A DNA stretch of 46,801 bases from Nitrospirota bacterium (GCA_040754455.1 JBFMCP010000026.1:1-46801), one strand, 5' to 3'; positions 1-46,801 are shown, numbered from the stretch's first letter. Numbers and translations: made by a program. Notes: generated by a model not told the origin, from the letters alone.

Positions 1-1107
1 CATGCCGACGGGTACCCGCAGTTCATCGACAATACGTTCGTGAAACAGGACAACTATGCAAACTATCGGACCATACGGAGCGATTACCTTTACTATCCAA
101 GCACCGGGAACTTCATCGGCAACCGCTTTGAGAACAGCGCCTCGATGGACAGCATCGATCTCCAGTTCAACAGTACTGCAAAAAAGGAGATCAAGGCGAG
201 CTGGCACCTCGATGTGAATGTAAAAAATGCCTCGGGCTCACCGCTGAGCGGGGCAACGGTCGTGGTAAAAGACAGTGCCGGTTCCGTCGTGTATAACGGA
301 TTTACGAATAGCGGCGGCAGCATCAGGACCGATGTATTTCAGCTACTCGACACCAATGTTTCAGGCAGCACGGTGGTAAGCAGGGAGATCAGGACATCAA
401 AAACCCCGCATACTATTGTTGTCACCAGAGATGGTCTGACCTCAACCAGAACCGTGGCGATTACCGGCAACCAGACCATCGATATTGTTCTCGGTGCACC
501 GGCGCCGGTGCCTGCACCAACGCCTGCACCGGTACCCGCTCCGACTCCGGTATCAGAACCGACACCGGCGACCGGGCTCACCTTCACCGATCTCGATCCG
601 AACCACTGGACCACGGCATACATCAAGGCGATAGCCGAAAAAGGTATCACCACAGGATGCGCGCCGGACAAATACTGCCCCTACAACAATATAACGAGGG
701 CACAGATGGCGGTCATGATCGTCCGGGCGAAATTCGGCGAGAACTTCACGTATACCCAGACGCCCTATTTCAGCGATGTCCCGTCAACAAGCTTTTTCTT
801 CAAGTATGTACAAAAGCTCAAAGACGCGGGGATCACCCAATCGAGCGGGACCTTCGGCGCCAATGACCTGTTGACAAGAGATGCAATGGCGGCGTTCATC
901 GTCGCTGCGAAATACGGCAGCGCCTTCACCTATCCCCAAACGCCCTACTTCAGCGATGTGCCGTCAACAAATTATTTTTTCAAGTATGTGCAGAAGCTCA
1001 AAGAAACCGGCATCACCAAAGCGAGCGGGACATACAATCCTCAAGGAAACATCACGCGGAGCGAAATCGCTGTGTTCCTCGCGAGAGCGTTCCTCGGGAT
1101 GCAGTAG
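1..1107 (+). CDS. Surface protein, 5'-truncated: beta-rich/carboxypeptidase-regulatory-like domain, Pro/Ala/Thr linker, three C-terminal SLH domains
   Basis: Frame open from base 1 (HADGYPQFIDNTFV...). PAPVPAPTP linker, then SLH motifs FTDL..HW...I..IAEKGITTG / ITRAQMA, FSDVP...YVQKL..GIT, ITRSEIA. Confidence 0.85.
   Translation, partial: HADGYPQFIDNTFVKQDNYANYRTIRSDYLYYPSTGNFIGNRFENSASMDSIDLQFNSTAKKEIKASWHLDVNVKNASGSPLSGATVVVKDSAGSVVYNGFTNSGGSIRTDVFQLLDTNVSGSTVVSREIRTSKTPHTIVVTRDGLTSTRTVAITGNQTIDIVLGAPAPVPAPTPAPVPAPTPVSEPTPATGLTFTDLDPNHWTTAYIKAIAEKGITTGCAPDKYCPYNNITRAQMAVMIVRAKFGENFTYTQTPYFSDVPSTSFFFKYVQKLKDAGITQSSGTFGANDLLTRDAMAAFIVAAKYGSAFTYPQTPYFSDVPSTNYFFKYVQKLKETGITKASGTYNPQGNITRSEIAVFLARAFLGMQ
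2..17 (+). repeat. 16-bp perfect inverted repeat, left copy (ATGCCGACGGGTACCC), start of a ~490-bp diverged inverted homology
   Basis: Reverse complement of 46785..46800 is identical; codon-aligned homology continues to ~492. Confidence 0.9.
751..1005 (+). repeat. Internal direct repeat with 180-bp period (SLH2/SLH3 duplication)
   Basis: tatacccagacgccctatttcagcgatgtcccgtcaacaa (751) vs tatccccaaacgccctacttcagcgatgtgccgtcaacaa (931). Confidence 0.85.
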
Positions 1108-1131
1108 CAGACCCTCTCACTACTACCCTCC

Positions 1132-1162
1132 GGGGCAGGACATTTCCTGCCCCTCTTTTTTT
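1132..1162 (+). terminator. Rho-independent terminator
   Basis: GGGGCAGGA-catt-TCCTGCCCC followed by TCTTTTTTT. Confidence 0.85.
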
Positions 1163-1358
1163 GCTTACTCCGTCCACCGGCGCTCCAGATCCAGCGCATT
1201 ATCTTCGTCGAGAGATACCGGCAAAGAGGATAGGAGGCCGTCTAAATTGCAGGCACAGGGAACAACAGTTGACTTTTCCCGGCATTGAGATAAACTCTGT
1301 TTAGAGCAGGTATCGGTTCTGCTCGCTTTTATCTACACCAATCAAATTGGAGGATCGT

Positions 1359-1796
1359 ATGCCGGTACGCAAGGCAGAAGCAGTCTGGAGTGGAACGTTA
1401 AAAAATGGTAAAGGGACGGTAAAGCTCGGCAGCGGCGCTTTTGAAGGGGCATATTCCTTCGCCTCACGGTTCGAAGAGGGGACCGGCACCAACCCCGAGG
1501 AGCTGATCGGCGCTGCACATGCAGGCTGCTTCTCCATGGCGCTCTCGCTCCTTCTGGAGCAGGCGGGGTACAAGCCCGAGCGTATTCACACCACCGCACG
1601 GGTGCGTATAGAGAAATCCGGAGAGGGGTTCAACATCACGTCGAGCGAGCTTGAAACCGAAGCCGAAGTTCCGGGTATTGACGAGAAGAAATTTATGGAG
1701 CAGGCGGAGGCAGCAAAAAAGGGCTGTCCTGTGTCGCAGGCCCTGGCGGGCACGGAGATCACCCTCAAGGCCAGACTGCTCGCCCGGTCCGTGTAG
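1359..1796 (+). CDS. osmC: OsmC family peroxiredoxin
   Basis: RKAEAVWSG.LK.GKG, YSFASRFEEG.GTNPEELIGAAHAGCFSMAL, AKKGCPVS; RBS GGAGG at 1349. Confidence 0.95.
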   Translation: MPVRKAEAVWSGTLKNGKGTVKLGSGAFEGAYSFASRFEEGTGTNPEELIGAAHAGCFSMALSLLLEQAGYKPERIHTTARVRIEKSGEGFNITSSELETEAEVPGIDEKKFMEQAEAAKKGCPVSQALAGTEITLKARLLARSV

Positions 1797-1855
1797 ATTA
1801 TAGTTCGGGATAATGACAGGGACTCGTGTGATTGCGGGGACACCTCCGGATGCTT

Positions 1856-4524: not shown

Positions 4525-4946
4525 TTAAGCACCGGGTGTCAGTACATTCAGCCCTTCAGCCATAGCGGCTTTATCCAATTTCTCATCAAAGGATGGAAAA
4601 AAGAGCGTGATATTCTCATCGTCATTGAGTAATTTGGCCGAAGAAAGATGGACCGCGTCAAAACCCCTCAGTCCGTATCTTCTCACCAGAGCGCCGGCCT
4701 CGATTTCATCGAAATCGATGACTACATAATTGAGCCGATCCCTACCAAACACATTCATCAACAATGCATACTCTTTCTTGGACAGGTCTCCGATCGTGAA
4801 ACGCCGATCCAGAGCGGAGACTGTCTCAGGGTACGCTATACGGTAGCTACGATTTCGGCACCCCCGATCCATTCTCTTACTTTACTCGAATGGGCCTCCT
4901 CTACATAGAGCTTTACAAGGCTGCTGGTATCGAGATAAACAATCAA
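4525..4946 (-). pseudogene. VapC/PIN toxin, frameshifted near 4843
   Basis: TTG at 4946 overlaps the antitoxin stop and reads MIVYLDTSSLVKLYVEE...AEIVATV* (stop 4836-4838). The remainder (IAYPE...LRGFDAVHLSSA...SFDEKL) continues in another frame to 4525. Confidence 0.8.
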
Positions 4947-7075: not shown

Positions 7076-7621
7076 CTAATTATCAATCCGTATAAAAGGA
7101 TAGCGCTGCAGCTGCTCCCGGGTCCATAGGGACAGCCCTGCACGCTGGCCAATCGTCTCGATGATAATGATGGCATCGGGATCTTCGAATGTCACCTGTG
7201 CGGAGTGGCCCTCTTTGTGCAGCGCTTCGAGAACAACCTTGTCGAGGAAGCGCTCTTCCTCAGGGCTAGAGAGTTTGCCTTTAAACCCCCGCCGGTGTAT
7301 GCGCACATGAAATCGCTTCCCGGCCAGTTGTGGAGCCCATTCCGTCACAATTGCACCTGCCTTTTGCTCGAACTCATCGGGAGATTGAAAGGAGAAGGTA
7401 TGGGTCACCGGTATCAGCCGGGAAAGGAACGACAGTGAGGAGGGATCAGCCTCTGACCGCTCACGGAGCGCCTCCATGAACTGCCCGGTGTCGTCCACTT
7501 TCATTGTCAGGACATTATAGAAGGCGGTCTTCTGCACAGCTCCGTAGGCGCGGAGCACCTCCCGCGCACGCTTGAATCCGAACTCATTGACGCTGACCAC
7601 CACATTCCATTCCATCATCAT
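7076..7621 (-). CDS. Stand-alone THUMP-domain protein
   Basis: FHVRIHRRG.KG.LSS.EEERFL, VTFEDPDAIIIIET; no catalytic domain attached. Confidence 0.75.
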   Translation of the reverse strand: MMMEWNVVVSVNEFGFKRAREVLRAYGAVQKTAFYNVLTMKVDDTGQFMEALRERSEADPSSLSFLSRLIPVTHTFSFQSPDEFEQKAGAIVTEWAPQLAGKRFHVRIHRRGFKGKLSSPEEERFLDKVVLEALHKEGHSAQVTFEDPDAIIIIETIGQRAGLSLWTREQLQRYPFIRIDN

Positions 7622-7705
7622 CCGCTCCCGCCGGCCGCCATTATCGCCTCCCGCTTCTCATGGTAGGCGCCCGGCTCCATGATCAAAAAGTGAGGAGGCG
7701 GGCAG

Positions 7706-9841
7706 TCAGCGTACGGAAACTACCGCTGTTGGTGACACCATGTCGAGAAGCACGCCCATCGCTTCCTGCACATAAGGGTCTTTGCTGACTTCCAGGACCC
7801 ACTGCTGCTTCCGTTCCTCTTCAGACAGGGACGTGTCCGTCTTCTTTGACTCGGATGCGCCATGAGGAGAACGGGCCTTCGCCTCTTTCCCTTTATGCTT
7901 CAGCGCCTCCTCGCGCTCCTTGCGCACGGCATCGATATGCAGCGGCTGGAGGGTCTTTGCCTGCAGCTCGCCGATCCGCACGCTCTCCTTCACCATATCG
8001 GTGAACTCCTGGTTCCCCTGCACCCGTGCGCTGCTCCTGGCTTTAAGCTGTGCGAGATCGGGCAACGCAGGCTGCCATTTCGTATACTGCACCGGAGCGA
8101 CCGTGTCCCAGGGGAGCGCATAGTCGAGGTACTGCTCTCCGGTCTTCAGGCTCTTCAGCGGGTCAGGGAGAACGATATCGGGCTCAACGCCGCGGTACTG
8201 GGTGGAGCCGCCGCTCACCCGATAGAATTTCTGGGTAGTGAGCATCAGCGCGCCGAGCGGTTTGTACTGTTCGCCGAAGCTGAATGGCAGTCCCTCACTG
8301 AGATCGAAGACGATCTGCACCGTTCCCTTGCCGTGGGTATGGTCGCTGCCCATGATGACCGCACGCCCGTAGTCTTGGAGCGCGCCGGCGAGGATTTCCG
8401 AAGCAGAAGCGCTGAACTTGTTGACGAGCACGACCAGCGGTCCCTTGTAATAGACGGCGGGATCTTCGTCGTAGTGGACCTTTACTTTTCCCGAGGCGCT
8501 CTTGACCTGCACAACTGGGCCCTCTTTGATGAAGAGCCCTGCAATGTTGATAGCGTCGGTCAGCGCCCCTCCGCCGTTGTTCCTGAGATCGAGGATAAGG
8601 CCGCTGATATTTTCCGATTCGAGCTTCTTCAGCTCGTTCTTCAGATCATCAGTGCAGTTGCGGCCCTCCTTTCCATGGCTGAAGCTGTCGAAATCCCTGT
8701 AGAAGCTCGGCAGCTTGATATAACCGAAGGTCTTGCCGTTCTTTTCATCCTTGATGGTCGTGCCCTTGGCAAAGGTCTCATCAATCTGGATCACATCGCG
8801 CACAATGGGGATCACGAATTGCGGCATGCCCTGCCGCTTGACGGTGATTTTGACCTCGGTTCCCTTCTTACCGCGGATCAGCCGCACGGCATCCCTGAGC
8901 TTCATATTCGTAACATCAACCGGCTCACTGTTCCCCTCTGCCACCTTGACGATCGTATCACCGGCAAGCAGTTGCCCCTGCCGCGCCGCCGGGCCGCCAG
9001 CCTTCACGCTCTCCACCTTTATGACGCCGTCCTCCTCGCGCAGCACGGCGCCGATCCCCTCGAGAGAGCCCTTCATGCTGATATCGAAATCCTCCTTGCT
9101 GGTCGGCGGCATATAATTGGTATGGGGATCGAAGGCCCTGGTAAGGGCGGTAAAGTAGCGGTCGAACTGCTCCGATCTCTTCTCCTGCTGCATGCGTGTA
9201 AACGTCTCTTCGTAGCTCTTCAGGGTCTTTTCGCGTGCCTTTTTCTGGAGATCTTCGGGCTTTGCGCTCTCTTTCGGTGCCTTCTCCGCGGCAGTTTCTG
9301 CGGTGCTGTCTTCCAGCAGGTTCAGATACTGGGAGAGCACCTGGTATTTCAACACCTTGCGCCAGCGGTCTTTCAATTCCGTCTCGGTGGTGCAGAAATC
9401 GATCTTGTCGATATCGGTCTCGATGAATTCGTCCTGGGTGAAGTCGAAATCTTTTGCCAGCAGCTCTTTGACCACCTGCTGGGTCTTGGCGACCCGCTCG
9501 GCGAGGATCTCCGCTCCCCTTTCCGGCAGCTCGATTTTCCCCGAGAGCACTTCATCGTCGATTTTATCGGCATAGGCCCTCAGCTTTTCGATATCCCCCT
9601 TCAGCAGGAAGCGTTTCTGGGGGTCGAGCTGCTTGATATAGAGATCAAAGGCCTTTTTCGAGAGACCGTCATCGATCTTCGTGTTGCTGAAATTGTGGTT
9701 TGCAAGATACTGGTACAGCCGGTATCCTACCAGCTGCGCACGATTGTAATCATGGTCGCCCGTGCTCTCAATGCCCTTTGCCGAAGCGGAACTGAGGCTC
9801 AGAAAGCCTATAAGGAGCACAACAAAAAAACGTTTCATCAT
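7706..9841 (-). CDS. prc: Carboxy-terminal processing (tail-specific) protease, S41A, with PDZ domain
   Basis: Signal peptide, DPHTNY, GSLEGIGAVL, DLRNNGGG, SASASEI, GKGTVQ, QKFYRVSGGSTQ. Confidence 0.95.
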   Translation of the reverse strand: MMKRFFVVLLIGFLSLSSASAKGIESTGDHDYNRAQLVGYRLYQYLANHNFSNTKIDDGLSKKAFDLYIKQLDPQKRFLLKGDIEKLRAYADKIDDEVLSGKIELPERGAEILAERVAKTQQVVKELLAKDFDFTQDEFIETDIDKIDFCTTETELKDRWRKVLKYQVLSQYLNLLEDSTAETAAEKAPKESAKPEDLQKKAREKTLKSYEETFTRMQQEKRSEQFDRYFTALTRAFDPHTNYMPPTSKEDFDISMKGSLEGIGAVLREEDGVIKVESVKAGGPAARQGQLLAGDTIVKVAEGNSEPVDVTNMKLRDAVRLIRGKKGTEVKITVKRQGMPQFVIPIVRDVIQIDETFAKGTTIKDEKNGKTFGYIKLPSFYRDFDSFSHGKEGRNCTDDLKNELKKLESENISGLILDLRNNGGGALTDAINIAGLFIKEGPVVQVKSASGKVKVHYDEDPAVYYKGPLVVLVNKFSASASEILAGALQDYGRAVIMGSDHTHGKGTVQIVFDLSEGLPFSFGEQYKPLGALMLTTQKFYRVSGGSTQYRGVEPDIVLPDPLKSLKTGEQYLDYALPWDTVAPVQYTKWQPALPDLAQLKARSSARVQGNQEFTDMVKESVRIGELQAKTLQPLHIDAVRKEREEALKHKGKEAKARSPHGASESKKTDTSLSEEERKQQWVLEVSKDPYVQEAMGVLLDMVSPTAVVSVR

Positions 9842-10094
9842 ACGATTACTACCTCACGATACACTGTTTTCCGGTCATACAGCACACGTACTGCCTAGGT
9901 TGACCTAAGCTCAATGATAACAAAATACACTGCGTTGTGGAAAGTTGCACGGACAGGGCTGTCAGAAAGTATTAAAAAATGCGCAAAAATCTTTTATAAT
10001 TGGAATAGAGATCAGAAGGAGTTCAGCAGCACCACGTTGTTGCTCGCCCCGTGGTTACTCAACCCTCACCCCTGCCTGCAAGGAGGCGCTTCCT

Positions 10095-10772: not shown

Positions 10773-10968
10773 GTTTTTTGAGGCCGCGGTAGAAGACCAG
10801 CATGCCCACCGCGGTAAAAGCGACATCAAGGTAAGGGTAAAGCCGAAATGTGTAGCGATAGAGCACAGGAACTGTTTCGACAGGGCTAGAGTTTCCGATT
10901 GCCGCCCAATAATACGCCGAAGCGGCCGTCAGCAGCACGCCGATGATCAGCTCTCCATGTATTTTCAT
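10762..10968 (-). CDS. Small 2-TM hypothetical protein
   Basis: MKIHGELIIGVLL...; purine-rich RBS; two hydrophobic segments. Confidence 0.55.
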   Translation of the reverse strand: MKIHGELIIGVLLTAASAYYWAAIGNSSPVETVPVLYRYTFRLYPYLDVAFTAVGMLVFYRGLKKLKE

Positions 10969-11139
10969 TCCCTTTCTCCTCCTCAGCGCAATCTTGAAAT
11001 CATCATGAGCTGTGATCAATAGTATAAAGAAAGTGGGGAGACAAAGGGAATGCAGACACGTCGCGCTGACGACTGCAGGCAGGTGACGGTAAAAAGTGGC
11101 GAAACTTTTTCCGCCCCGGTTGAGGAATGTGGAAGCTTG

Positions 11140-13123: not shown

Positions 13124-13200
13124 GTCTTCATAATTATACCTAAAGGGAAAGAGAAGGTGGAAATGAAGGGCACAAAAATGGCACTTCTTGAGAACGCGAC

Positions 13201-34855: not shown

Positions 34856-34866
34856 TTCGTACCCCC

Positions 34867-35373: not shown

Positions 35374-36767
35374 ACCCTTCCTCCGTGAGCTGTTATGATA
35401 TGTTTCACAATAGCCAGTCCTAGACCGGTCCCTTTTATCTGGCCCGTATCAGCGGTGGGCGCCTGCTGGAACTTTTCAAAAATAACCGGGAGGTTTTCCT
35501 GTTCGATCCCCGGTCCCGAATCCGACACCACCACCATGATACTCCCGGCGACAAGCCCTGCCGAGACAGTGATCTCACCACCATAGGGCGTAAACTTCAC
35601 CGCGTTCCCGATAAGGTTCCGCAGCACCTGCATAATGCGCTCCCTGTCCAGTCTGATCTCCGGCAATGCGGGCAGCGGCTCGACCGTAAGGGTGATCTGT
35701 TTTGCTCCTGCCAGGAGCTCGGCCTCCTCGGCGGCCTTGCGGATCAGCGGTGCGATGTCAGCCGGAGCGAAATCATACGTCATCATGCCGGCCTCCATCT
35801 TCGAAAGGTCCATGATGGAATTGACCATGCCGATCATGCGGTTGCTCTCTTCAGCGATGATGGTCAGAAGCCGTTTCTGCCGTTCGTTTGCCTCTCCCCC
35901 CACACCCTCCAGCAGAAGATTGGTCCCCTCCTTGATGGAAGCGAGGGGAGTGCGCAGCTCATGAGACATATAGGAGAAGAAATCGGATTTCATCTTGTCG
36001 AGCATCGAGAGCTTCTTGCACATGGAATTAAACGCCCTCGACAGTTCCCCTATTTCCGGAGGAGATGCAACAGCAAGATCGCTCTTCAGGTTCCCCTTCG
36101 CGATTTCCCTGGTCTTGTCTACCACGACCGAAAGAGGGCGGGTAATGCTCCGGGTAATAACGAATGCGACGCCGATACCGATCGTAAGGGACGTAAGCGC
36201 CATAGCCGCCACGACCCCCGCTGCAGCGTCCCCGCTCGCTCTCAACTCTTTTATCCTTTCGTAGGTGTGCTGCTGGTACACGCTCTTCAGTTTCCTGAGC
36301 TCCTCGGTGATCGCCTCGACCTTCCTCTGCTTCTCCTCCTTATACCACAGCTGCGGATAGGAACTGTTCCTCCTGACGAGCTCCGCCTCCTGCTGCACGA
36401 GCGCGCGGTAGCCTGCATGCCGGTCCCGTATTGCTCTGATGAGTATCTTCTTCTGGGGGGTATCCGCCACCGCCAATGCCGCATCGCAGGAGCGGGCGAA
36501 ATCGCCGGCGGTCGACAGAAACTGATCATAGAGCGCACTGTCTTTTATGATGATATACTTCCGCTCGTACCGTATCTGTGAAAAAAGGGAGTCGCTCAAC
36601 CTCTTTTCATAGTCGGCGAGCAGATTGTTCACCTCGAGGATGCTCCGGATCGTCCTGTTGAAATGGCGCAGCTGCACCACCGCGTAAACGCTGACCGCCA
36701 TGACGAGAATAAAGACAGCAAGATAACCGATAACCAGCCGGGAAAAAATACTTAATCTCATACTCAT
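35313..36767 (-). CDS. glrK: HAMP sensor histidine kinase, GlrK/QseE-like
   Basis: Two TM, HAMP, MSHELRTPLASIKEG.NLL, NLIGNAVKF, DSGPGI, GTGLGL. Confidence 0.78.
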   Translation of the reverse strand: MSMRLSIFSRLVIGYLAVFILVMAVSVYAVVQLRHFNRTIRSILEVNNLLADYEKRLSDSLFSQIRYERKYIIIKDSALYDQFLSTAGDFARSCDAALAVADTPQKKILIRAIRDRHAGYRALVQQEAELVRRNSSYPQLWYKEEKQRKVEAITEELRKLKSVYQQHTYERIKELRASGDAAAGVVAAMALTSLTIGIGVAFVITRSITRPLSVVVDKTREIAKGNLKSDLAVASPPEIGELSRAFNSMCKKLSMLDKMKSDFFSYMSHELRTPLASIKEGTNLLLEGVGGEANERQKRLLTIIAEESNRMIGMVNSIMDLSKMEAGMMTYDFAPADIAPLIRKAAEEAELLAGAKQITLTVEPLPALPEIRLDRERIMQVLRNLIGNAVKFTPYGGEITVSAGLVAGSIMVVVSDSGPGIEQENLPVIFEKFQQAPTADTGQIKGTGLGLAIVKHIITAHGGRVWAESTPGQGSSFIFVLPVS

Positions 36768-37207
36768 TCTGCTGCGCTGCGGATAGTCAAGGAAATCTTC
36801 GCTCGGAAATACCTATCGGACGAGTGCAACGTCATGTACTGCTTCAGGTGCGATTTCCTGTAGAGGTTAAAACAGCATCTTGCACTACCTATGCTCAAAA
36901 AAACGACACTATATAATAACATATTTTCACTCAAATGCCATACCTGCCTTTCGCTCAAAGATGCGGTACATAAAGGGTTTAGAGGCGCCTACCCTCACCA
37001 TAGCGCTCCGGATATCATTTGTAAAGGAAACTATTCCCTCGTGATTTTTTAAGGGCATCGCCCTGCTGAAAATGTTGCACGTCCTCTCTCATCAGGAGCG
37101 GGCGCCGCATGCGAGGACTGCGCGTGTACTGCAGGGGATAAGCATCCTGCCGCACGGAAGAAACGCATTGACGACAGACTCATTAACGGACAGAGCGAAG
37201 CATGCCG

Positions 37208-37244
37208 CGTCCCGTTATACGACACTCTGTCATGTTTCTTTACA
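37208..37244. promoter_or_regulatory. Tandem enhancer pair (YGT-N11-ACA x2), candidate PrsR box
   Basis: CGTCCCGTTATACGACA and TGTCATGTTTCTTTACA. Confidence 0.55.
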
Positions 37245-37307
37245 TCTCGGGGGAAAGCATGCGGCATCCGGCGAGAATGCGCTTTGATTTCAACACCGAC
37301 TTAAGAA

Positions 37308-37323
37308 TGGCATATCACTTGCA
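37308..37323 (+). promoter_or_regulatory. sigma54 -24/-12 promoter
   Basis: TGGCAT-ATCAC-TTGCA. Confidence 0.8.
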
Positions 37324-37406
37324 TATTTTTAAAATATGAAACGTCTGCTTCATTAACTATGATGCAACATCTCACCATACATCCTGAACAGGCGATGAGG
37401 CCAATG

Positions 37407-37526
37407 ATGAAGTACTTGATTTCCATACTGATGGATTCACCGCTCTACATGAAGCTCCCCGTAAAAGAGAGATTGCGGCTGCTCAAATACCTGGCGGACA
37501 AATACTGGCAATTGCTGAGCCGGTAA
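37407..37526 (+). CDS. Small protein (39 aa), below the ORF-track cutoff
   Basis: MKYLISILMDSPLYMKLPVKERLRLLKYLADKYWQLLSR; GAGG upstream; in-frame alternative starts back to 37359. Confidence 0.5.
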   Translation: MKYLISILMDSPLYMKLPVKERLRLLKYLADKYWQLLSR

Positions 37527-37613
37527 TTACCCGGATTTCTTCGTCCCTACACGACTGCCGTTCCGACAGTACACCCCCGCGCAAGGTGCGTTCTTTTATA
37601 GGAGGTGACCATA

Positions 37614-37835
37614 ATGTACCTGCGGACGATCTCCCTTTTGATCTCGGTGCCGGCCGTGCTCGCGCTCTCCCTCGGTCCAGTGTCGTCCGGAGCGATGATG
37701 GTCATACAAAGTACTGATGCAGGGGGCCCCGCTGCTAAGGAAGACGACATATTGTTTATCATACGCAAGCCGTCCACACTCCTACTGCTGGTGGCCGGGC
37801 TCCTCGGGTACGGTCTCTTGCAGATGAGAATGTGA
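37614..37835 (+). CDS. Miniature secreted protein with degenerate PEP-CTERM-like tail
   Basis: RBS AGGAGGTG; signal peptide; C-terminus IRKPSTLLLLVAGLLGYGLLQMRM. Confidence 0.6.
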   Translation: MYLRTISLLISVPAVLALSLGPVSSGAMMVIQSTDAGGPAAKEDDILFIIRKPSTLLLLVAGLLGYGLLQMRM

Positions 37836-37924
37836 AATTGATAAGACATGTACGTCCGGGGTCCCGTGTGCCGCGTGCAGCACGCGTTTTTTTCCGCTAT
37901 GATCGTAAAAGGGAGGGAAGTTCA

Positions 37925-38179
37925 ATGAGGAAGAGAGTGATCGTCGCCCTTTTAGCAGTGATCTACGGTCTCATCTGTCTCGGCATCGGCTGGATCGCAG
38001 GTATCGACAGCGGCTTTGATACCGGGTACAGGGTTGCCTATATCGAAATGGACAGACTCCTGCGGCAGGGAATGAAGGAGGGGGTGAATTTTTATGTTGA
38101 AGGCCTGAACATAAAATTCTCTCCCGGCGAAGAGAGCGTGCTCAAGATTTCGGCTGGAGGAAACCGGCAGTACCGATAG
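37925..38179 (+). CDS. Small single-TM hypothetical protein
   Basis: MRKRVIVALLAVIYGLICLGIGWIAG...; RBS GGGAGG. Confidence 0.65.
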   Translation: MRKRVIVALLAVIYGLICLGIGWIAGIDSGFDTGYRVAYIEMDRLLRQGMKEGVNFYVEGLNIKFSPGEESVLKISAGGNRQYR

Positions 38180-38217
38180 TGTAAAATCTCACAACAAAAG
38201 TGTCGCTAAAGTTTACA
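38180..38217. promoter_or_regulatory. Tandem enhancer pair (TGT-N11-ACA x2), candidate PrsR box
   Basis: TGTAAAATCTCACAACA and TGTCGCTAAAGTTTACA, 21-bp period. Confidence 0.6.
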
Positions 38218-38419
38218 GCACTACAGCAGCGCATCGCCCGAAGCATGTCTCCGGGACACGCCGCAGCACAGAGGAGCATGTCGTCACTGTGTTGCGCAAA
38301 AAAACAAGCACGCCCCCTTGGCCGCAGCGCATCGGGCTGAACATTGCACGCCGCCCCATCTCCTGCAGCATCCGCTGCAGAGGACCCCGAAACAGTGGGC
38401 AAGGGCTTTCTTCTGCTCC

Positions 38420-38435
38420 AGGCACAATTATTGCT
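38420..38435 (+). promoter_or_regulatory. sigma54 -24/-12 promoter
   Basis: AGGCAC-AATTA-TTGCT, ~200 bp downstream of the enhancer pair. Confidence 0.65.
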
Positions 38436-38496
38436 TTTTGATGGCGAAGCACCATTGCGCATACCGCGCAATGATGGCGATCGCACCAGGAGCGCA

Positions 38497-40803
38497 TTGA
38501 CGGCACCGGTCATGGACATGCACGAATTTATCACCACCAAGCTCTCGATCCTTCAGGACGTTCCGCGTGCCGTTGTGGCTACCGGCGGTGCCAGTGCCAT
38601 AACGAACCTTATGCTCGACCTTGCCATAAACTACGCTGCGGCAGAAAAAGGCTCGCTGATGCTCGTGGACGAGCACCATGAACTCTTCATCGCTGCTGCT
38701 AGGGGCATCGATACCCAGCTCATCAGAATCTGCCGCAGCAAGATAGGGGAAGGCATCGCCGGCACGGTTGCGGCGCAGCGCACTCCCGTACTGGTTGCAT
38801 CAATCGAGCAGGACCATCGGTTCAGAGGGGAAGGACGGGAGCAGCGGTATAGAACGAAGTCCTTCATATCCTGCCCGGTTATCAGCAAGAACAACAGGCT
38901 GTTGGGGGTTCTCAACATCAGTGATAAAAAGGACGGCGCCGCCTTCACCGAGCGTGAATTTGCATTCATAAAGATCATTGCCGATCAGACGGCTATCGTC
39001 CTCCGGAATGCCCTCCTGATACACCAGCTCAGGGCAAAGACAGCAGAGCTCGAAATGGTCAACAGCGCCCTTATCGAAACCGATGCTGCAAAGACCGAAT
39101 TTCTCGTCCGCATCTCCCATGAGCTGCGGACTCCCCTCAATTCGATCAAAGGTGCAGTATATTATCTCCAGAAATCGGAACTGCCGAAGGCCGGGGAACA
39201 GAAAGAATTCTATGATATCATCTCACACGAGACAGGCAAGCTCATTAGCACCGTCGAAGAACTGCTCGATTATCTCAGAACCGAAGACGAGGTACGCGTC
39301 ATCAGGACATCGATCATTCCGGTCGCCGGGCTCATGGAAGAAATCGCTGCCTCGAGGACGTTGAGAACGGCGCTCGCACAGAAAGAGCTTACCCTGGACC
39401 TCGATATCCAGAAAGGGATAGCGGATTTTCCCGGCAACAGGATACGAGCGGCCCAGTTCTTTACGACGCTCCTGGAAGCGCTGTGCCGTTATCTCAGGCG
39501 GGGAGATACCCTGCATCTCGCCGCACGGGATGCTGGCAACATCGAGATCACTATCACCCTCCCCCGCCGGATGCCCGAAACGGCCCCGCTCCTGTGCCAC
39601 CTCTTTCATCCTTCCTCTCCCTTTCAGAGGGGCCGGGCCGAGGAGCATCTCCGCCTCGCCATGGCGAGGAAGATCGCAGAAGCGCACCAGTGGTCGCTCA
39701 GCGCGAACAACAGCGCTGCCTCCTGCATTGTTTCTCTCGTCATACCCAAGGGTATGCGCCAGAAGACCGAGGTCGCCATCTCCGCAGCGGCCGACCTTTT
39801 TGCCGATGTCGCTGCAGAGATGATGGGACTGCACCGGTGCTCGCTGATGCTCGTGGACGACCTGACCGGAGAGCTCAGCATACGGGGTGCACGGGGAATA
39901 GATGACGAAACAGTAAGAAAGACGCGGATAAAGCTCGGCGAGAGGATAGCGGGGTGGGTTGCGGTGGAAGGCATGCCGCTCCTGATAGAGGACATCGAGC
40001 GGAATCACTACTTCGGCAAACGGAACGCTCCACAGTACAACACAGGATCGCTCGTTTCCCTGCCCCTGAACACCGGGGACCGGGTGATAGGGGTCCTGAA
40101 CCTGAGCAACAAAAAAGCGGCTTCCCCCCTTTCACGCGAAGAGCTCTATATAGGCTCTGTTCTGAGCGAGCGCATCGCCTTCTGCCTCGGCGACCTCCTT
40201 CGCAACGGGTATCGCGAAGATACCTTCAGGAATCTCCTCATGTCCTTCGATACCCTTTTGAGCGCACAGAAGCGGGACTGCAAGAGCAGCCCCCTCCTTT
40301 CCGGTCTGCTTCTGAGCACCATGGAGCTGCTGCATGCAACCGAGAGGGAGAAAGCGCTCGCCCTGTATATCTCCCGCCTCTACGATCTCGGTCTCGGCCT
40401 CGTGGATGAGGATGTCCTGAGCGAGGAAACGCTCCTCCCCTCGGATATGCGCATGCTGAAGGCGCATCCCTCTATGACCGTGGACCTCATCAGCTTCTTT
40501 GAGTATTCCGAGGAGGTGAAAAAGGCGCTGCTCCACCACCATGAACGGTATGACGGAAAGGGGTATCCCGATGGTCTGAAAGGGGAGGAAATACCGTTCA
40601 TTGCGCGATGTATCGCTGTCGTCGATGCCTTTTGCGCCCTCTCCTCGGATCGACCGTACCGGAAGGCCATAGAACGGGAGGCGGCGCTGCAGGAGATCAG
40701 GAGCGGTGCAGGTTCGCGCTATGACCCAGCCATCGTCGAGGCGTTCGATGCGGCCGCTGCACGGATGCTGAGCCGTACCGCAGCACAGGCCCTGCTTCAT
40801 TGA
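38497..40803 (+). CDS. GAF-HisKA-(degenerate HATPase)-GAF-(degenerate HD-GYP) signalling protein
   Basis: Two GAFs (GEGIAG.VA, GERIAGWVA), SHELRTPL, HHHERYDGKGYPDGLKGEEIP; start TTG 38497 (AGGAG) or ATG 38512. Confidence 0.85.
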   Translation: MTAPVMDMHEFITTKLSILQDVPRAVVATGGASAITNLMLDLAINYAAAEKGSLMLVDEHHELFIAAARGIDTQLIRICRSKIGEGIAGTVAAQRTPVLVASIEQDHRFRGEGREQRYRTKSFISCPVISKNNRLLGVLNISDKKDGAAFTEREFAFIKIIADQTAIVLRNALLIHQLRAKTAELEMVNSALIETDAAKTEFLVRISHELRTPLNSIKGAVYYLQKSELPKAGEQKEFYDIISHETGKLISTVEELLDYLRTEDEVRVIRTSIIPVAGLMEEIAASRTLRTALAQKELTLDLDIQKGIADFPGNRIRAAQFFTTLLEALCRYLRRGDTLHLAARDAGNIEITITLPRRMPETAPLLCHLFHPSSPFQRGRAEEHLRLAMARKIAEAHQWSLSANNSAASCIVSLVIPKGMRQKTEVAISAAADLFADVAAEMMGLHRCSLMLVDDLTGELSIRGARGIDDETVRKTRIKLGERIAGWVAVEGMPLLIEDIERNHYFGKRNAPQYNTGSLVSLPLNTGDRVIGVLNLSNKKAASPLSREELYIGSVLSERIAFCLGDLLRNGYREDTFRNLLMSFDTLLSAQKRDCKSSPLLSGLLLSTMELLHATEREKALALYISRLYDLGLGLVDEDVLSEETLLPSDMRMLKAHPSMTVDLISFFEYSEEVKKALLHHHERYDGKGYPDGLKGEEIPFIARCIAVVDAFCALSSDRPYRKAIEREAALQEIRSGAGSRYDPAIVEAFDAAAARMLSRTAAQALLH

Positions 40804-40879: not shown

Positions 40880-42283
40880 TTATTGTGAGATACTTTCTTT
40901 TAAGAGACCCGGCTGGCTGTTGTAGAGGCCGTGCTTTTTCATGATATCGTAGAGGGTAGGCCTGCTGATGCCCAGTTCTTCGGCAGCGCGGGCGATATTG
41001 CCGTTGTGCTTCTCAATGGCCGCGGTGACCATTTCCCGCTCGATCCTGTCCCGCGCCTCTTTGAGCGTAATATTTTCGACGACCGTCGCCTTCTGCATCG
41101 ACGACCGCTCCGAAAACCCGAGGTCATGGGGCTCGATGATCGAGAGCTCCGACATGATTACTGCACGCTGTATCCTGTTTTCAAGCTCCCTGACGTTGCC
41201 GGGCCACTCATACGATTCGAGCAGCTTGATCGATGCAGGGCTGAATCCTCTCACTTTCTTTTTGAACTCCTCACTGAACCTCCTCAGAAACAGGTTGGCG
41301 AGAAAGACGATATCCTCCCCGCGCTCTCTCAGCGGCGGGAGATTGATCACCAGCACACCGAGCCGGTAATAGAGGTCCTCCCTGAACCTCCCGTCCTGTA
41401 TCGCCTTCTGGATATCGATATTGGTTGCCGCCAATATCCTCGCATCCACATGGATGTCTTCACGCCCGCCGATGCGCTGCACGGTCTTTTCCTGCAGAAA
41501 GCGAAGCAGTTTCACCTGCAGCGCAGCGGAAAGCTCGCCGATCTCATCGAGGAAGAGCGTTCCCTTATGCGCAAATTCGACCTTGCCCTGCACCTGCAGG
41601 TGGGCCCCCGTAAAAGCGCCCTTTTCATGTCCGAAGAGCTCCGATTCGAGCAGGTTTTCGGGTATGGCGCCGCAGTTGATCGGTACAAAGGGTCCCTCCT
41701 TCCTCAAGCTCATGGAGTGGATCGCCCGCGCCACCAGCTCCTTGCCGGTGCCGCTATCGCCGACGATGAGAACCGAGATATCGGATGAGGCAACCTTTCT
41801 GATCGTTGCAAAGATCTTTACCATCTCGGGACACTGTCCGACCATACCGCACAGCTCCGTGGTCTTTTCGTCAAGCGAAAGGTGCAGCCTGCGGTTCTCC
41901 TCCTCGATGTTGTGCAGATAAAAGGCACGGTTGATAATGATCGTGAGTTCTTTCACATCGATAGGCTTCTGGTAATAATCGTAGGCCCCCATCTTTACCG
42001 CTCTGAGCGCATTCTCGCGCTCATGGTTTCCGGTGATGACGATCACCTTCGTCGAGGGGGCGAGCTTCAGCATCTCCTCGAGACACCTGAACCCCTCTGC
42101 CGTGCCGTGCCCGTCAGGCGGCAGACCGAGATCGAGCGTCACAACCTTGGGCTGGTGCCGCCTGAAAAGCGCCTGCGCCTCCTTGCCGTCTTCTGCCAAA
42201 AGGACAGCGTACTCCTTTCCCAAACCCCATTTGAGCTGCTTTCTTATCTCCTCGCTGTCGTCAACGACCAGTACCTTTTCCAT
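40880..42283 (-). CDS. prsR: PEP-CTERM-box sigma54 response regulator
   Basis: IRKQLKWGL, VTLDLGLPP, GAYDYYQKP, GAFTGA, ISRPTLY; adjacent to prsK and exosortase. Confidence 0.9.
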   Translation of the reverse strand: MEKVLVVDDSEEIRKQLKWGLGKEYAVLLAEDGKEAQALFRRHQPKVVTLDLGLPPDGHGTAEGFRCLEEMLKLAPSTKVIVITGNHERENALRAVKMGAYDYYQKPIDVKELTIIINRAFYLHNIEEENRRLHLSLDEKTTELCGMVGQCPEMVKIFATIRKVASSDISVLIVGDSGTGKELVARAIHSMSLRKEGPFVPINCGAIPENLLESELFGHEKGAFTGAHLQVQGKVEFAHKGTLFLDEIGELSAALQVKLLRFLQEKTVQRIGGREDIHVDARILAATNIDIQKAIQDGRFREDLYYRLGVLVINLPPLRERGEDIVFLANLFLRRFSEEFKKKVRGFSPASIKLLESYEWPGNVRELENRIQRAVIMSELSIIEPHDLGFSERSSMQKATVVENITLKEARDRIEREMVTAAIEKHNGNIARAAEELGISRPTLYDIMKKHGLYNSQPGLLKESISQ

Positions 42284-42471
42284 TGGGTGTGACAAGCCTC
42301 CTTTCTCGCAAATTCTCTGTTGGCGTTTTCTTTTTCCAGCCTACCGGCCGTCCCGCTGAGGACAACAGCTCAACCGGCGAGGGGCAACCCCGCGACCGCG
42401 TTTCTGCGGCGATCGGCTGCAGGATCACCGGTTGCCTCGGCCTGCTGCGTTGCAACGGATAAAGGACATCA

Positions 42472-44547
42472 TCAGGTACACTGGAGCGCAAGGTCCGGCG
42501 CGTGCGCCAGCGGGAGGTGGACAGTGAAGACCGACCCTTTCCCTATTTCGCTCGTCACCTCGATCCAGCCTCCGTGCGCCTCAACAATATGCTTGCATTG
42601 GTACAGACCGATCCCGAGCCCCTTCTTTTTCGTAGTACAGAAAGGCTTGAACAGCCGCTCCCGCATAAACTCATCGGTCATGCCGCAGCCGCTGTCCTTC
42701 ACCCGTATGAATGCCGTTTCATTACTGCCCACCTCGACAATGACCGGCGTCTTCCCTTCGGACGCCTCGAACGCATTGAGGACAAGGTTCAAGATGACCT
42801 TCTGGAGCTCATCCACATCAACATAGGAGAAGACGGAACTTATATTCAGCCGCACCTCTCCCTGGGTAATTCTGCCGACTGTTTCATAGGCAATCCGGCA
42901 CACATCAACAAGCTCCCGGTGCAGAGATTGTTTTTCCTCAAGGTTTTTCAAACGTGCTATCAGCCGCTTCATTTTATCCATAGTGGCACTCAGGGACTGG
43001 AGCATATCTTTCTGGAAATCGGGATCCCCCATATACTCCCGTGCATTATCGATCACGAGCGAGAGGGTGGTGACAAGGTTCTTCAGGTCATGCATGACAA
43101 AGGCGGACACCTTGCCCATCGCCTCCATTTCCCGTGCATTCGAGAGCTCATTGGTCAACTTCAGGTTGAGTAGCACAGAAGAGGCATGGCGGGCAAAGGT
43201 CTTCATTAGATCGTAATCCTCGCTGGTATACACCTCATTTTTATTCATGGGCCTGCCGAGGGCGATGAACCCCTCGAGTGTCGTCGCGCTGTAAAGGGGA
43301 ACCGCGAACGAGAGGGCGCGCTCGGCAAAAAAGGTCCGGTCCTCGGCAGCGGCACCGGAAAGCCCGTCGTTGATATTGAGGACCCAGTCTCTTTTTTTCA
43401 TCTGCAGGACCAGGGGACTCTGGTTGCTGAAGGACTCCGTGCCGGTGCTCACCCCGAAGGAAGCGGCATTATAGTATGCCTTCTTCCCGTCATCGTAAAG
43501 GAAAAGGACAGCCTCTTCCATACCGAAGGTATCACGGTATCCTGAAAGCACCGCTCTCAAGAGCTCGTCGATCGTCTTTGCTGAAGAGAGCCTGTCGGTA
43601 AACGTCAGCCATTGCATGCGATAGTCATACTTATTCGCATAGAAGTGCTTGTAGAGCATGATCCTCAACGCCCTCTGGGCTTTTTCCGAAAGGAGCACGG
43701 CGATAAGCCCCATGCCGCCCGCAAAGGCGAGGGAGATCAGCACTGCCTTCTGGAAGTACCCCCCGAAGTACCGCATCCCCTCCCCCATCAGCCCGAGGGC
43801 GATCAGGTAGAGACCGATAATGAAAATGACTGCTGACCGGTACGCCGATTGTTTTGAAACATAGACCCTGACGCCGCTCCCGCGCTTTCCATGCGAGTAC
43901 GCCATAAGCGCGACGGCAACCACGGCCATGATCGACCGCACCGGCATCAGGTTCATATTGAGCGAGCGGTAGAGCAGGCCCTGGCTGTAGTAAAAGAGCA
44001 GCGCCGCCAGTAAGCCCCCGGCGCCGAGCACCTCGAACTTGATCTTCCACCGTGAAGTCCTCGAAGCGGTCAGCAGCGTCACCTCGAGATTGAAAAGGGC
44101 CGCGATCATATACATCAGCGCTCCGAGATAAAAGATAAAGCCGGCGTTCCCCAGAAAGAGCATCCGCTCGTTGATAAAGTCAGGAGAACTGAAAAAAGCT
44201 TCGATAGGAATGATCGCTGCAGCAACGAGCAGTGCAGGGGCGCTGCAGAGCAGCAGACGCTGCGTTATCGGTATGCTCCTTGTGCCGCTCTCTCTCGAAA
44301 AGGTGAGCGAGAAGAGCAGCCAGGCCGGCAGCAGCACTGTCTCTGAGAACAGCGCCCCTTTTTTCCAGAAGAGGAATTGTTCCGGATAGATGAAGGAGAG
44401 GAGATCGCAGCTCTCAAGGACGGCAGTGGCGAGGAGCGCCGTGCAGAGCGATGATGTTGTCAGCGACCGTTCAATACGGAGGGCTCGGTAGACCGCATAG
44501 CCGGTCAGGACGGCAATGGCGCCTATGGACAGGATATTCTGGAGCAT
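42472..44547 (-). CDS. prsK: PEP-CTERM system multi-TM histidine kinase
   Basis: Multi-TM N-terminus, KHFYANKYDYR.QWL, GAF, AFVMHDLKN, GLGIGLYQC. Confidence 0.9.
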   Translation of the reverse strand: MLQNILSIGAIAVLTGYAVYRALRIERSLTTSSLCTALLATAVLESCDLLSFIYPEQFLFWKKGALFSETVLLPAWLLFSLTFSRESGTRSIPITQRLLLCSAPALLVAAAIIPIEAFFSSPDFINERMLFLGNAGFIFYLGALMYMIAALFNLEVTLLTASRTSRWKIKFEVLGAGGLLAALLFYYSQGLLYRSLNMNLMPVRSIMAVVAVALMAYSHGKRGSGVRVYVSKQSAYRSAVIFIIGLYLIALGLMGEGMRYFGGYFQKAVLISLAFAGGMGLIAVLLSEKAQRALRIMLYKHFYANKYDYRMQWLTFTDRLSSAKTIDELLRAVLSGYRDTFGMEEAVLFLYDDGKKAYYNAASFGVSTGTESFSNQSPLVLQMKKRDWVLNINDGLSGAAAEDRTFFAERALSFAVPLYSATTLEGFIALGRPMNKNEVYTSEDYDLMKTFARHASSVLLNLKLTNELSNAREMEAMGKVSAFVMHDLKNLVTTLSLVIDNAREYMGDPDFQKDMLQSLSATMDKMKRLIARLKNLEEKQSLHRELVDVCRIAYETVGRITQGEVRLNISSVFSYVDVDELQKVILNLVLNAFEASEGKTPVIVEVGSNETAFIRVKDSGCGMTDEFMRERLFKPFCTTKKKGLGIGLYQCKHIVEAHGGWIEVTSEIGKGSVFTVHLPLAHAPDLALQCT

Positions 44548-44548: not shown

Positions 44549-45184
44549 CTATTCCGGCAAGAACTCCGCTATGCGGGGATAAAAGTCCCGTATAAACCTC
44601 ATCCCCCTCCGAAACACAGCTTCCTCCTCACCCTCAAGCGGCAGCGATATCCTTACGAAGGCGGAGTCCCGGCGGCGGTAAAGGGCGGAGTTCAGTATTT
44701 CGTGAGCTTTGAGGGCATACTCATTGGACAGCGTTCTGCCCTTTATCTGATACCAGTAAAGAAGCATCTCCTTGTTTTCATCTTTCTGGTATACCGCACG
44801 TACAAAACGCAGCACCCTGCCCCCGACATTCACCTGCATCGTCCTTTCCGCGATCCGGTACCATCCGCTACCCGGCAGGCAATGTTTGGGGGAATGTATC
44901 TCCCCGCTCTCCTTGCCGCCGCTATGGTAGCCGATATACAGCGAGATCTTTTCCCCGTCCGGTCCCCGGTACTCCCGCATAAGATAATCAGCCGGTCTCA
45001 GCACCTTCATGATGCTGTTGCTCAGCGTTGCCTGGGATATCATCACCCATTGCCCTTCGCGGAGGGGGAACTCGGTAAACGATCTCTTGATGGGTACTGC
45101 AACGTCGGTATGCAGGTGCAGATAGAGAAGGGCGAGTATGAGGAGCAGATACACAATGACGAATCTGCTGTTGCCGATTACCAT
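44549..45184 (-). CDS. epsI: EpsI-family exosortase-associated protein
   Basis: LYIGYH, IHSPKHCLPGSGW, LYWYQ, RRRDSAFVR. Confidence 0.9.
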   Translation of the reverse strand: MVIGNSRFVIVYLLLILALLYLHLHTDVAVPIKRSFTEFPLREGQWVMISQATLSNSIMKVLRPADYLMREYRGPDGEKISLYIGYHSGGKESGEIHSPKHCLPGSGWYRIAERTMQVNVGGRVLRFVRAVYQKDENKEMLLYWYQIKGRTLSNEYALKAHEILNSALYRRRDSAFVRISLPLEGEEEAVFRRGMRFIRDFYPRIAEFLPE

Positions 45185-46017
45185 TTGCTGCTCCTTACCA
45201 GCGCTCCCGTGATGATCAGCAGAACTACCGCAAGCCAGAAGACGACCATCCCCGCGAATTCATGAAAAAAGCCCTCGGCAGCGCGAGCGCCCCAGTGCTG
45301 GGCGAGAATACCCGTAACAACGACCCTGAGCCCGTTGGCAAAGAGGGCGATGGGGACCGCCGAAGCGATGACGACCACCCGCTTCAGGGTCGACTGCTGG
45401 GAGAAATAGGCAAAAGCAACGGCAAGCGCAATGAGCGACATGAGCGACCTGATCCCGCTGCAGGCATCGGCGACTTCGAGAACGGTTGAAGGAAACATGA
45501 TGATGTTTCCTTCTCTCCATACGATGATTCCCATCATTTTGAGAAAGAGCACCGAATACGTTGCGACGAGCAGTTTGAGCGGAAAGGCAAAGGTATCATA
45601 GGCGATATAGGGCAAAGGGATCATAAACATAAGGTAAGCCAGAGGAAAAAGAAGCGCCCTGAACACTTCGGAGCCGAAGAGGAAGAGCACCATGCCGGCA
45701 AGGAGCACGAGCAGTGACGAGCGCATCGTAAAGTATTCCGTACCCAGACATGCCGCAATGAGCAGCAGAAGACCGAAGAGGATGATGCATATCCCCACGT
45801 TCTGCGGCCTCACCGGCGCACGCTTCAATGCATCACGGTTCCGGTAGATGGCGTACGCCGAGATGAAAGGGATGATAAAACCATGGGAGTAGTTGGGATC
45901 ATCGATCCATACGTTTACCATGGCCGGGAGAATCGACCAGTACAACCCTCCGATCAGGAGAAGGGACAGGAGCAGGTGTGCACGATACCTGCAGAGTGCC
46001 TCACCGAAATACAGCAT
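45178..46017 (-). CDS. Exosortase (EpsH family)
   Basis: YSHGFIIP, EVADACSGIRS (Cys), ANGLRV (Arg), FFHE (His); RBS AAGGAGG. Confidence 0.93.
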   Translation of the reverse strand: MLYFGEALCRYRAHLLLSLLLIGGLYWSILPAMVNVWIDDPNYSHGFIIPFISAYAIYRNRDALKRAPVRPQNVGICIILFGLLLLIAACLGTEYFTMRSSLLVLLAGMVLFLFGSEVFRALLFPLAYLMFMIPLPYIAYDTFAFPLKLLVATYSVLFLKMMGIIVWREGNIIMFPSTVLEVADACSGIRSLMSLIALAVAFAYFSQQSTLKRVVVIASAVPIALFANGLRVVVTGILAQHWGARAAEGFFHEFAGMVVFWLAVVLLIITGALVRSSKW

Positions 46018-46227
46018 GGAGCGCTCTCCTCCTTGGGATGTCCGCAAACAGGAAGCGGCTGTTGTTGATGCGGCCGGCTATTGCAAATCATAGCTCACTC
46101 TTCAATGATCTGCAATGAAAATATACGCTGTAATGTCAGTTTCGGTTTCTTCGGGAATCGATCAGACAAATGGATGCTGCACCGCAAGCCGTAGAGATAC
46201 CGGCACTGAGAGAGACAATGAGATGGT

Positions 46228-46270
46228 GACACGGTGGCACGGAGAGATAAAATCTCCGCGCCACCGCGTC
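46228..46270 (-). repeat. Octamer-based intergenic hairpin
   Basis: GACACGGTGGCACGGAGA / TCTCCGCGCCACCGCGTC; 16/18 pairs, both mismatches become G-U on the minus strand. Confidence 0.7.
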
Positions 46271-46306
46271 TCTGACGTTCCGCGCTATGTAAAACCGTAG
46301 CGGCAA

Positions 46307-46801
46307 TTACAAAATAATGTTCAGGGCCTGGTTCCCTGTAATCGTTACTGTTCTTGTCACCGTCTTGCCGTTCCTGGTAACGACAACGGTATGCGGCGTT
46401 CTGGTTACCGCTGCCTCTTTTCTTACCACTGTTCCGCCGGAGACATTGGTTTTCACATACTGTGCGACATCCGTCCGGACGGTGCCGTTTCCGTTCGTCG
46501 TGCCGTTAAAGACCACGACTCCGGCATTGGTCTTCACCACAACGGAGGCGCCGCTCAACCCAGCTCCCGAGGCATCCCTTACGATGACATCGAGATGCCA
46601 GCCCGCCTTGATCTCCTTCTTACCGGAACCCCAGAACTCCATCTCGATAATGCTCATCGAGGCACCGTTCTCAAAGCGGTTGGCGATAAAGTCACCGGTG
46701 CTGACCACCGCTGCGTTCTGGCTCCGTATGGTACGATAGCTTGCGTGCGCATCCTGCCGCACAAAGGTGTTATCGACGAATTTAGGGTACCCGTCGGCAT
46801 A
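46307..46801 (-). CDS. Surface protein, 5'-truncated paralog of the gene at 1..1107, without linker or SLH
   Basis: Frame open to the window end (YADGYPKFVDNTFV...); ungapped alignment to the left-end protein; stops where the left copy enters its Pro linker. Confidence 0.85.
   Translation of the reverse strand, partial: YADGYPKFVDNTFVRQDAHASYRTIRSQNAAVVSTGDFIANRFENGASMSIIEMEFWGSGKKEIKAGWHLDVIVRDASGAGLSGASVVVKTNAGVVVFNGTTNGNGTVRTDVAQYVKTNVSGGTVVRKEAAVTRTPHTVVVTRNGKTVTRTVTITGNQALNIIL
46785..46800 (-). repeat. 16-bp perfect inverted repeat, right copy
   Basis: GGGTACCCGTCGGCAT is the reverse complement of 2..17. Confidence 0.9.

Follow-up and report, generated by a model that had tools for sequence, protein, structure and literature searches.

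In Campylobacter fetus, the sap surface-protein genes are switched by a single promoter that lies on an invertible piece of DNA, with silent cassettes and recombination in a 5' block that the homologs share. In Lactobacillus acidophilus, the active and silent surface-layer (S-layer) genes slpA and slpB are interchanged by an inversion of about 6 kb at one expression site. Here we analysed a 46,801-nt stretch of DNA from a Nitrospirota bacterium (the whole of it, positions 1-46801, is hereafter the window), which begins and ends inside two inverted paralogous genes, L and R. An earlier note on this DNA had proposed that the window is an invertible segment of the sap/slp kind, which switches a surface protein between a C-terminus anchored by S-layer homology (SLH) domains and an anchorless one. 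The layout resembles both systems: as in sap, oppositely oriented homologs combine a conserved 5' region with diverged 3' parts, and as in slpA/slpB, oppositely oriented paralogous envelope-protein genes bracket a piece of the chromosome. A further comparison is offered by the inverted tuf genes of Salmonella, which are described as undergoing concerted evolution by RecA-dependent gene conversion, with inversion in up to 50% of recombination events (PMC6735719); the same account states that the inversion swaps promoters, at a fitness cost (PMC6735719, citing Hughes 2000). Like tufA and tufB, L and R would be inverted paralogs in which recombination maintains identity over about 1.2 kb, with invertible DNA between them and promoters that are swapped by a flip. 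The differences are that here only the 5' two-thirds of the genes are homogenised, while the 3' parts are 68% identical and unlike in domain content (SLH), that the intervening DNA measures 46.8 kb and does not span the origin, and that no inversion was observed. We regard a tuf-like inverted pair, homogenised by gene conversion and breaking short-read assemblies, as the best explanation of the locus and as a likely one. The sap locus is also described as holding multiple sapA/sapB copies and repeats that hamper assembly (PMC4943207).

L is the 3' part of one paralog (1..1107, plus strand; an open reading frame, ORF, of 368 aa that is open at its 5' end) and R the 3' part of the second (46307..46801, minus strand; also open at its 5' end, 164 aa and a stop). 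On the plus strand, L encodes the last rungs of a beta-helix and an immunoglobulin (Ig)-like, CarboxypepD_reg-like sandwich (1-492), a proline-rich linker (about 493-576), and three SLH domains followed by the stop codon (about 577-1104; PF00395 in three stretches, E 4.7e-23, 81.3 bits against a cut-off of 20.8). R has the same domains as L 1-492 without linker or SLH and ends at the aligned position; the Pfam scan found no SLH in it. The contrast between a left copy that continues into an anchor and a right copy that stops there was thus correctly drawn in the earlier note. The CarboxypepD_reg match in L was weak (24.1 bits, under the cut-off of 32.3), and Pfam saw the C-terminal domain weakly, under cut-off, in both L and R. 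Base 1 on the plus strand and base 46801 on the minus strand fall at the same codon of these two homologous ORFs, and the manual alignment of the note was reproduced by BLASTP (102/164 identities, 0 gaps, E 2e-73). The DNA sequences agree at 333/492 positions (68%); 43 codons differ synonymously only and 62 non-synonymously, so that the divergence of the 3' parts is old. This 3' part is present in two copies only across the host draft genome (G000). Judged by a 780-aa protein of a sister genome (G001), L is truncated at codon ~406 of about 780. It is 67% identical to that protein over aa 407-780, and R is 69% identical to its G001 ortholog, with which contig C40 of that genome begins.

A perfect 16-bp inverted repeat had been reported at the very ends of the window. 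Direct comparison showed that its left arm (2..17), which lies in the conserved ADGYP codons, and its right arm (46785..46800) match exactly, and the repeat is absent from all other G000 contigs. The note had cautioned that a second 16-nt identical run could make the terminal one ordinary paralog homology, and this caution was well placed. The second run exists, and among 5000 codon-column shuffles of the L/R alignment 41% contained at least one run of 16 nt or more and 7% contained two. The terminal repeat is therefore at chance level for paralogs of such similarity (P = 0.41). The divergence had further been described as concentrated in short patches; the alignment is patchy, but only mildly so, as the 62 mismatches are spread over 36 runs (the longest of 6, 5, and 4) and the two patches named account for 10/62.

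The window is the entire contig C26 of G000, a short-read draft of 92 contigs and 3.27 Mb, and the symmetric cut was therefore made by the assembler, as the earlier note had allowed. At 126/184 contig ends exactly 127 nt are common to another contig, which identifies the assembly as a de Bruijn graph with k=127. For the ends of C26, a k-mer search found no overlapping contig, which placed both among the 42/184 ends without any overlap. When G001 proteins were searched against the whole of G000 by tblastn, the first 36 codons of the 780-aa protein were found twice, running off the end of contig C69 and off the start of contig C48. These two contig ends are identical over 127/127 nt (19 nt upstream of the ATG and 36 codons) and unrelated further upstream. 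Codons 37-405 were not found in the G000 assembly, the same search returning only the 36-codon starts and the two 3' parts.

Taken with the length of the G001 gene, this suggests that ~1.23 kb (about 405 codons) of both genes probably form an inverted exact repeat, here called U, which is itself not in the assembly. The window (1..46801) would be the unique segment between the two copies of this ~1.2-kb repeat, and the genome order would read flank (C69 or C48), U, 46.8 kb, inverted U, other flank. U would begin 19 nt before the ATG, take in the ribosome site and the start codon, and encode the signal peptide together with most of a right-handed beta-helix. Upstream of the base-1 codon the genes would be exact copies, which the assembler would have been unable to cross. 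With the border at the same codon in both copies, a crossover in the shared sequence would indeed be in frame, as the note had supposed. When proteins were searched with the N-terminal 405 aa, 101 matches were obtained; the G000 copy was absent among the 12 that were read fully, the other 89 being judged by the identity column. Exact-pattern scans of metagenome contigs for the missing middle returned 0 matches, and a search for a longer protein with R returned 1 match only. The N-terminal domain of a third paralog, on contig C14, was considered as the missing 5' part and rejected, as it belongs to another gene's 968-codon stop-to-stop frame.

The left border was examined in contigs of four public runs from three studies (groundwater, biofilm, and hot spring), which were compared with window positions 1-1300 and thus covered the left end only. 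These contigs were built from 31-letter words, too short to span a repeat of ~1.2 kb, so that the orientation of the segment is not readable from them. In 4/4 runs, a single contig covering positions 1-1300 extended exactly 30 nt past base 1. With 31-letter words, we read an exact 30-nt overhang as a graph branch at base 0/1. Base 1 is C in L and T in R, the first base that differs between the copies. The exact repeat would thus appear to end at base 0, with at least 30 nt upstream of base 1 common to another sequence. In a second NCBI assembly, the identical R protein is encoded on a 46,804-nt contig together with a 368-aa L protein from the same 90% cluster, and this contig has the same breaks, so that the contig break is reproducible; the right border of the repeat is placed by symmetry and by this second assembly. 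The near-identity of the 5' parts, which the note had proposed as a check, is therefore found where these parts can be read, over the first 127 nt in both copies and over at least 30 nt before base 1 for L.

The paralogs are 100% identical in the first 127 nt of U and in its last 30 nt or more, and identity drops abruptly to 333/492 after base 1. This step from 100% to 68% would mark the edge of a gene-conversion tract between paralogs that evolve in concert. The sister genome G001, likewise a k=127 assembly, shows similar tracts in its own pair, L' and R'. The last 127 nt of its contig C22 equal nt 876-1002 of L' exactly, and the first 127 nt of C40 equal nt 1218-1344 of L' exactly; an exact 469-bp tract is thus common to L' and R', and beyond its two ends identity is 82% and 74%. 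The same two genes are also identical over their first 98 coding nt. Over the first 108 nt, a comparison that covers only the short 5' part visible in G000, the two G000 copies agree at 108/108 positions and the two G001 copies at 104/108, and G000 and G001 agree at 83-84/108. Identity is higher within than between genomes, which means that the paralogs were homogenised in each genome, with different tract borders. An abrupt identity step and within-genome similarity, as in concerted evolution by gene conversion of the tuf type, were thus both observed. From these data we infer that the identity arose by conversion, that it extends through the unseen middle of U, and that flips are rare and unprogrammed.

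Gene order in G001 further separates the two paralogs. Collinear best matches to 17/35 window proteins were found in C40:1-33.4 kb, in reversed order and with the R ortholog first, and the R-side block of G001 runs on into other genes. The 5' part of R' stands at the end of C22, and the genes upstream of R' match G000 contigs C14-C89-C69; by this gene order C69 is assigned to R. An alignment of the promoter regions, mostly of the sigma-54 core, gave local scores of 40 for C48 with R' and 34 for C69 with R', which is slightly against that assignment. The SLH ortholog L' is found at another G001 locus (contig C5), head to head with the third paralog, and the matching site in G000 (C33/C21) is without an SLH gene. 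The bracket around the 46.8 kb is consequently specific to the G000 lineage, and the comparison with a related genome, suggested in the earlier note, revealed a sister genome that lacks it.

Some observations on these loci are added here. In the G001 pair (C5:85000-104000, local 7358-14479), 2.1 kb separate the SLH paralog (780 aa, minus strand) from the third paralog (895 aa, plus strand), which has an additional N-terminal domain. A BioW gene and a gene of 348 aa lie in between, and windows of the 5' parts of the two paralogs agree at 57-60/60 positions. This head-to-head pair is a small inverted-repeat bracket of the same kind. In G000, between the end of C33 and C21, the stretch of about 1.45 kb between the orthologs of a G001 307-aa gene and BioW is unrelated DNA with ORFs of 136 and 105 aa, at the place that the SLH paralog occupies in G001. 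The last 127 nt of C89 (1160 nt) equal the end of C14 and its first 127 nt equal the start of C69; it carries a second copy of the gene at the C14 end, which suggests a tandem duplication in the exopolysaccharide gene row.

The sigma-54 promoter consensus is TGGCAY-N5-TTGCW. Sites of this form are located at -114 (C69) and -72 (C48) from the ATG, with the same ribosome site and ATG in both, and the G001 genes have such sites at -60 and -76. G000 as a whole contains 41 such sites, against 6 expected from base composition. Each copy would thus stand behind a sigma-54-like promoter of its own and have its own ribosome site and start codon; there would be no silent copy, and a flip is predicted only to swap promoters. 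Further consensus matches within the window were found at 37308 (plus), 31247 (minus), and 30341 (minus), one of them in a 1.6-kb stretch (36767-38344) without a long ORF. A PEP-CTERM gene described elsewhere is RpoN-dependent, with a TGGCAC -24 motif and a probable role for PrsK-PrsR (PMC9850573). PrsR, which is encoded in the window, is a candidate for activating the sigma-54-like promoters of both L and R.

Whether the locus is a switch was weighed on these data together with recombinase content, strand composition and gene content. A programmed or high-frequency inversion switch, in which the segment flips and exchanges SLH-anchored and free C-terminal halves between two expression sites in the manner of sap, would account for several features: inverted paralogs whose 5' module is exact where seen (127/127 nt and at least 30 nt, the ~1.07 kb middle being unseen) beside diverged 3' halves, as in the conserved 5' crossover block of sap; promoters that differ upstream of the shared block, so that a flip would alter regulation; a RecA gene in G000; and a border conserved in 4/4 populations. 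It is opposed by the predicted promoters, since both genes have their sigma-54-like site, ribosome site and start codon and neither would be silent. Where sap has a single expression site on the invertible piece, both flanks here carry sigma-54-like sites, and each copy would have its own promoter outside the segment. No recombinase was found nearby. Resolvase (PF00239) had 1 match in G000, on C44, and Phage_integrase (PF00589) had 12, none of either on C26, C69, C48, C14, or C89, and the Pfam scan revealed no recombinase among 35 ORFs on C26, 4 on C69, and 9 in the first 12 kb of C48. The note was therefore right that the window holds no recombinase gene, and the search of the flanks for an invertase that it had advised found none on C69 and C48. 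With neither a recombinase gene nor specific short border repeats, the locus does not have the make-up of a site-specific invertase switch of the Hin/Gin or tyrosine-recombinase type.

The GC skew of the segment is likewise undiminished and matches that of both flanks in one orientation. Reversed C26 had a skew of +0.037, positive in 5/5 10-kb windows, C14 +0.042, and C48 +0.051, at a genome median |skew| of 0.039. Equality with the flanks in one orientation indicates that one orientation was kept over evolutionary time; similar time in both orientations should have erased the skew, which therefore argues against flipping that is both frequent and balanced. Gene strand alone does not account for the skew, as that of C48 is positive despite mostly minus-strand coding. 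Housekeeping genes also lie inside the segment (uvrD, the exonuclease VII large subunit, a tail-specific protease, and a P-type ATPase). Together with a length of 46.8 kb and two predicted expression sites they set the locus apart from slpA/slpB. The SLH copy stands at another locus in G001, where the R-side block continues into other genes. Finally, the family looks enzymatic, with the anchorless form as the usual one, and not like an S-layer lattice protein; the sap proteins, in contrast, are S-layer subunits. The proteins here are beta-helix proteins of an enzyme-like fold, and for sap inversion has been demonstrated, which is not so here. On this evidence we consider a programmed switch very improbable. 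A variant without invertase or silent copy, in which U is kept as a crossover site and frequent RecA-dependent flips swap the two sigma-54 promoters between anchored and free forms while turning xrtA-prsKR, appears to us quite improbable as well. The interpretation of the earlier note is thus partly supported: its anatomy holds, and is stronger than was visible in the window, while a switch function is not supported.

Inversion may of course occur without being programmed. Inverted copies of U would permit RecA-dependent inversion as a by-product, and after a flip the anchored and the free form would each stand behind the other's sigma-54-like promoter. Under an unprogrammed inversion polymorphism, rare RecA crossovers in U would leave both orientations in existence in natural populations, at low frequency or specific to strains, possibly costly and with no dedicated function. 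The inverted identity, which would be ~1.2 kb long, and the presence of RecA are in favor of this; however, no second orientation was seen in the data here, and by the skew one orientation prevails over the long term. We regard such a polymorphism as possible but unlikely, and note that it overlaps with the tuf-like explanation, from which it differs only in how often inversions persist. The opposite proposal, that there is no repeat behind the break, and that low coverage or a hypervariable upstream stretch produced dead ends in front of 5' parts that are merely similar, would explain why the ends of C26 belong to the class of 42/184 without overlap, and why the middle is missing from the assembly with no matching protein in the protein search. 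It does not explain why the contigs of four independent sets all end exactly 30 nt past base 1, as coverage gaps would not repeat to the base, nor why the breaks recur in the second assembly. Moreover, the two 5' starts match exactly over 127 nt and converge on one k-mer, and the same kind of break in G001 is fully explained by the exact 469-bp repeat. The absence of a repeat is therefore extremely unlikely in our view.

Several points weigh against a tuf-like, conversion-homogenised pair in which flipping is rare. A plain k=127 graph would be expected to leave 127-nt overlaps at the edge of a repeat, and the ends of C26 have none; some assembler step would have taken them away. The ~1.07 kb middle of U was never seen, and U may be near-identical or mosaic instead of exact. 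The repeat border was constant across four populations, with up to 9 substitutions and 2 indels in 1300 nt between their L parts, and this constancy could also mean that the border is maintained. The skew of C69 (5.4 kb) was -0.007, and the coding-strand shares (C14 0.82, reversed C26 0.60, C48 0.38) gave no orientation signal either way. The data seen would be compatible with a mixed population and, by the tuf precedent, inversions of the 46.8-kb segment probably arise.

Directly downstream of R is the XrtA exosortase gene (45178..46047, minus strand; PF09721, E 3.3e-75; TIGR03109, 226.2 bits against a cut-off of 208). It is followed on the same strand by genes for the exosortase-associated EpsI (44549..45184; PF11984; TIGR02914, E 2.5e-38, 131.3 bits against a cut-off of 42.8), for PrsK, the histidine kinase of the XrtA/PEP-CTERM system (42472..44547; TIGR02916, 572.2 bits against a cut-off of 300), and for PrsR, a sigma-54-dependent response regulator (40880..42295; TIGR02915, 687.6 bits against a cut-off of 502.6). 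With all four over curated cut-offs, an XrtA/PEP-CTERM exopolysaccharide system is present. The C69 flank encodes a UDP-GlcNAc 2-epimerase, a GT4 protein, a Wzy_C protein, and an acyltransferase, and R is located between these exopolysaccharide-synthesis genes and xrtA. No PEP-CTERM model matched L or R, of which L ends in SLH and R right after the Ig-like domain; neither has the ending of a PEP-CTERM substrate. In the first 80 kb of the collinear G001 contig C40, the matching place included, neither xrtA nor epsI was found; in G000 the two stand between R and prsK (44549-46047). Elsewhere in the window, four signalling-rich stretches (14486-16759, 22697-25432, 31610-36767, and 38344-40803) encode GGDEF and GGDEF-EAL proteins, a second sigma-54 regulator with a kinase, and a GAF-HisKA-HD protein. 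An ORF at 4525-4872 (minus strand) with a weak PIN-domain match (20.5 bits, under cut-off) adjoins an 89-aa ORF, and the two may form a toxin-antitoxin pair.

The N-terminal part of the G001 ortholog has 101 relatives, mostly of 560-610 aa, some of which are named by their sources as right-handed parallel beta-helix or carboxypeptidase-like regulatory-domain proteins. The members of 560-610 aa end like R; their common length equals U plus R, and the anchorless form is therefore the family norm. R would be the ordinary form of ~570 aa, and L the same protein with a proline-rich linker and three SLH wall-anchor domains added. Both forms are old, as an SLH-bearing form of 779 aa occurs in another genus. 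A structure model of the G001 ortholog (aa 1-569, 64-row alignment, pLDDT 94.6) has a beta-helix from ~47 to 450 and then a beta-sandwich, which places the repeat border at 405/406 inside the helix and not at a domain border. Foldseek matched the model to tailspike depolymerases, the AlgE4 epimerase, GH28, the RbmB lyase, and PL6 (E 3e-5 to 1e-3, TM 0.25-0.54), at 10-14% identity. The fold of the model resembles that of polysaccharide-active beta-helix enzymes, and R adjoins exopolysaccharide genes and xrtA. L has three SLH domains, yet the family is one of beta-helix and Ig-like proteins of enzyme-like fold whose common form has no anchor. By the model, the proteins look like polysaccharide-active beta-helix proteins and not like S-layer subunits, and these secreted beta-helix and Ig-like proteins probably act on or bind exopolysaccharide. 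The adhesin PfbA was also among the fold matches, and the sole sequence match in the PDB is a collagen adhesion protein (E 2.9e-6), so that the proteins may instead have a binding role.

For the reading of draft genomes, the practical lesson is that a contig which starts and ends at the same codon of inverted paralogs marks the edge of a collapsed inverted repeat, and that such a symmetric cut alone is no sign of a mobile or switching element. If both orientations exist, the locus would be one of few examples of a large inversion that needs no invertase and through which two forms of an envelope enzyme trade their sigma-54 control; if only one exists, L and R would be an ordinary tuf-like pair. 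For this uncultured Nitrospirota lineage, the finding would mean that a beta-helix family beside an XrtA system evolves in concert at its 5' part, while the SLH and free tails stay distinct.

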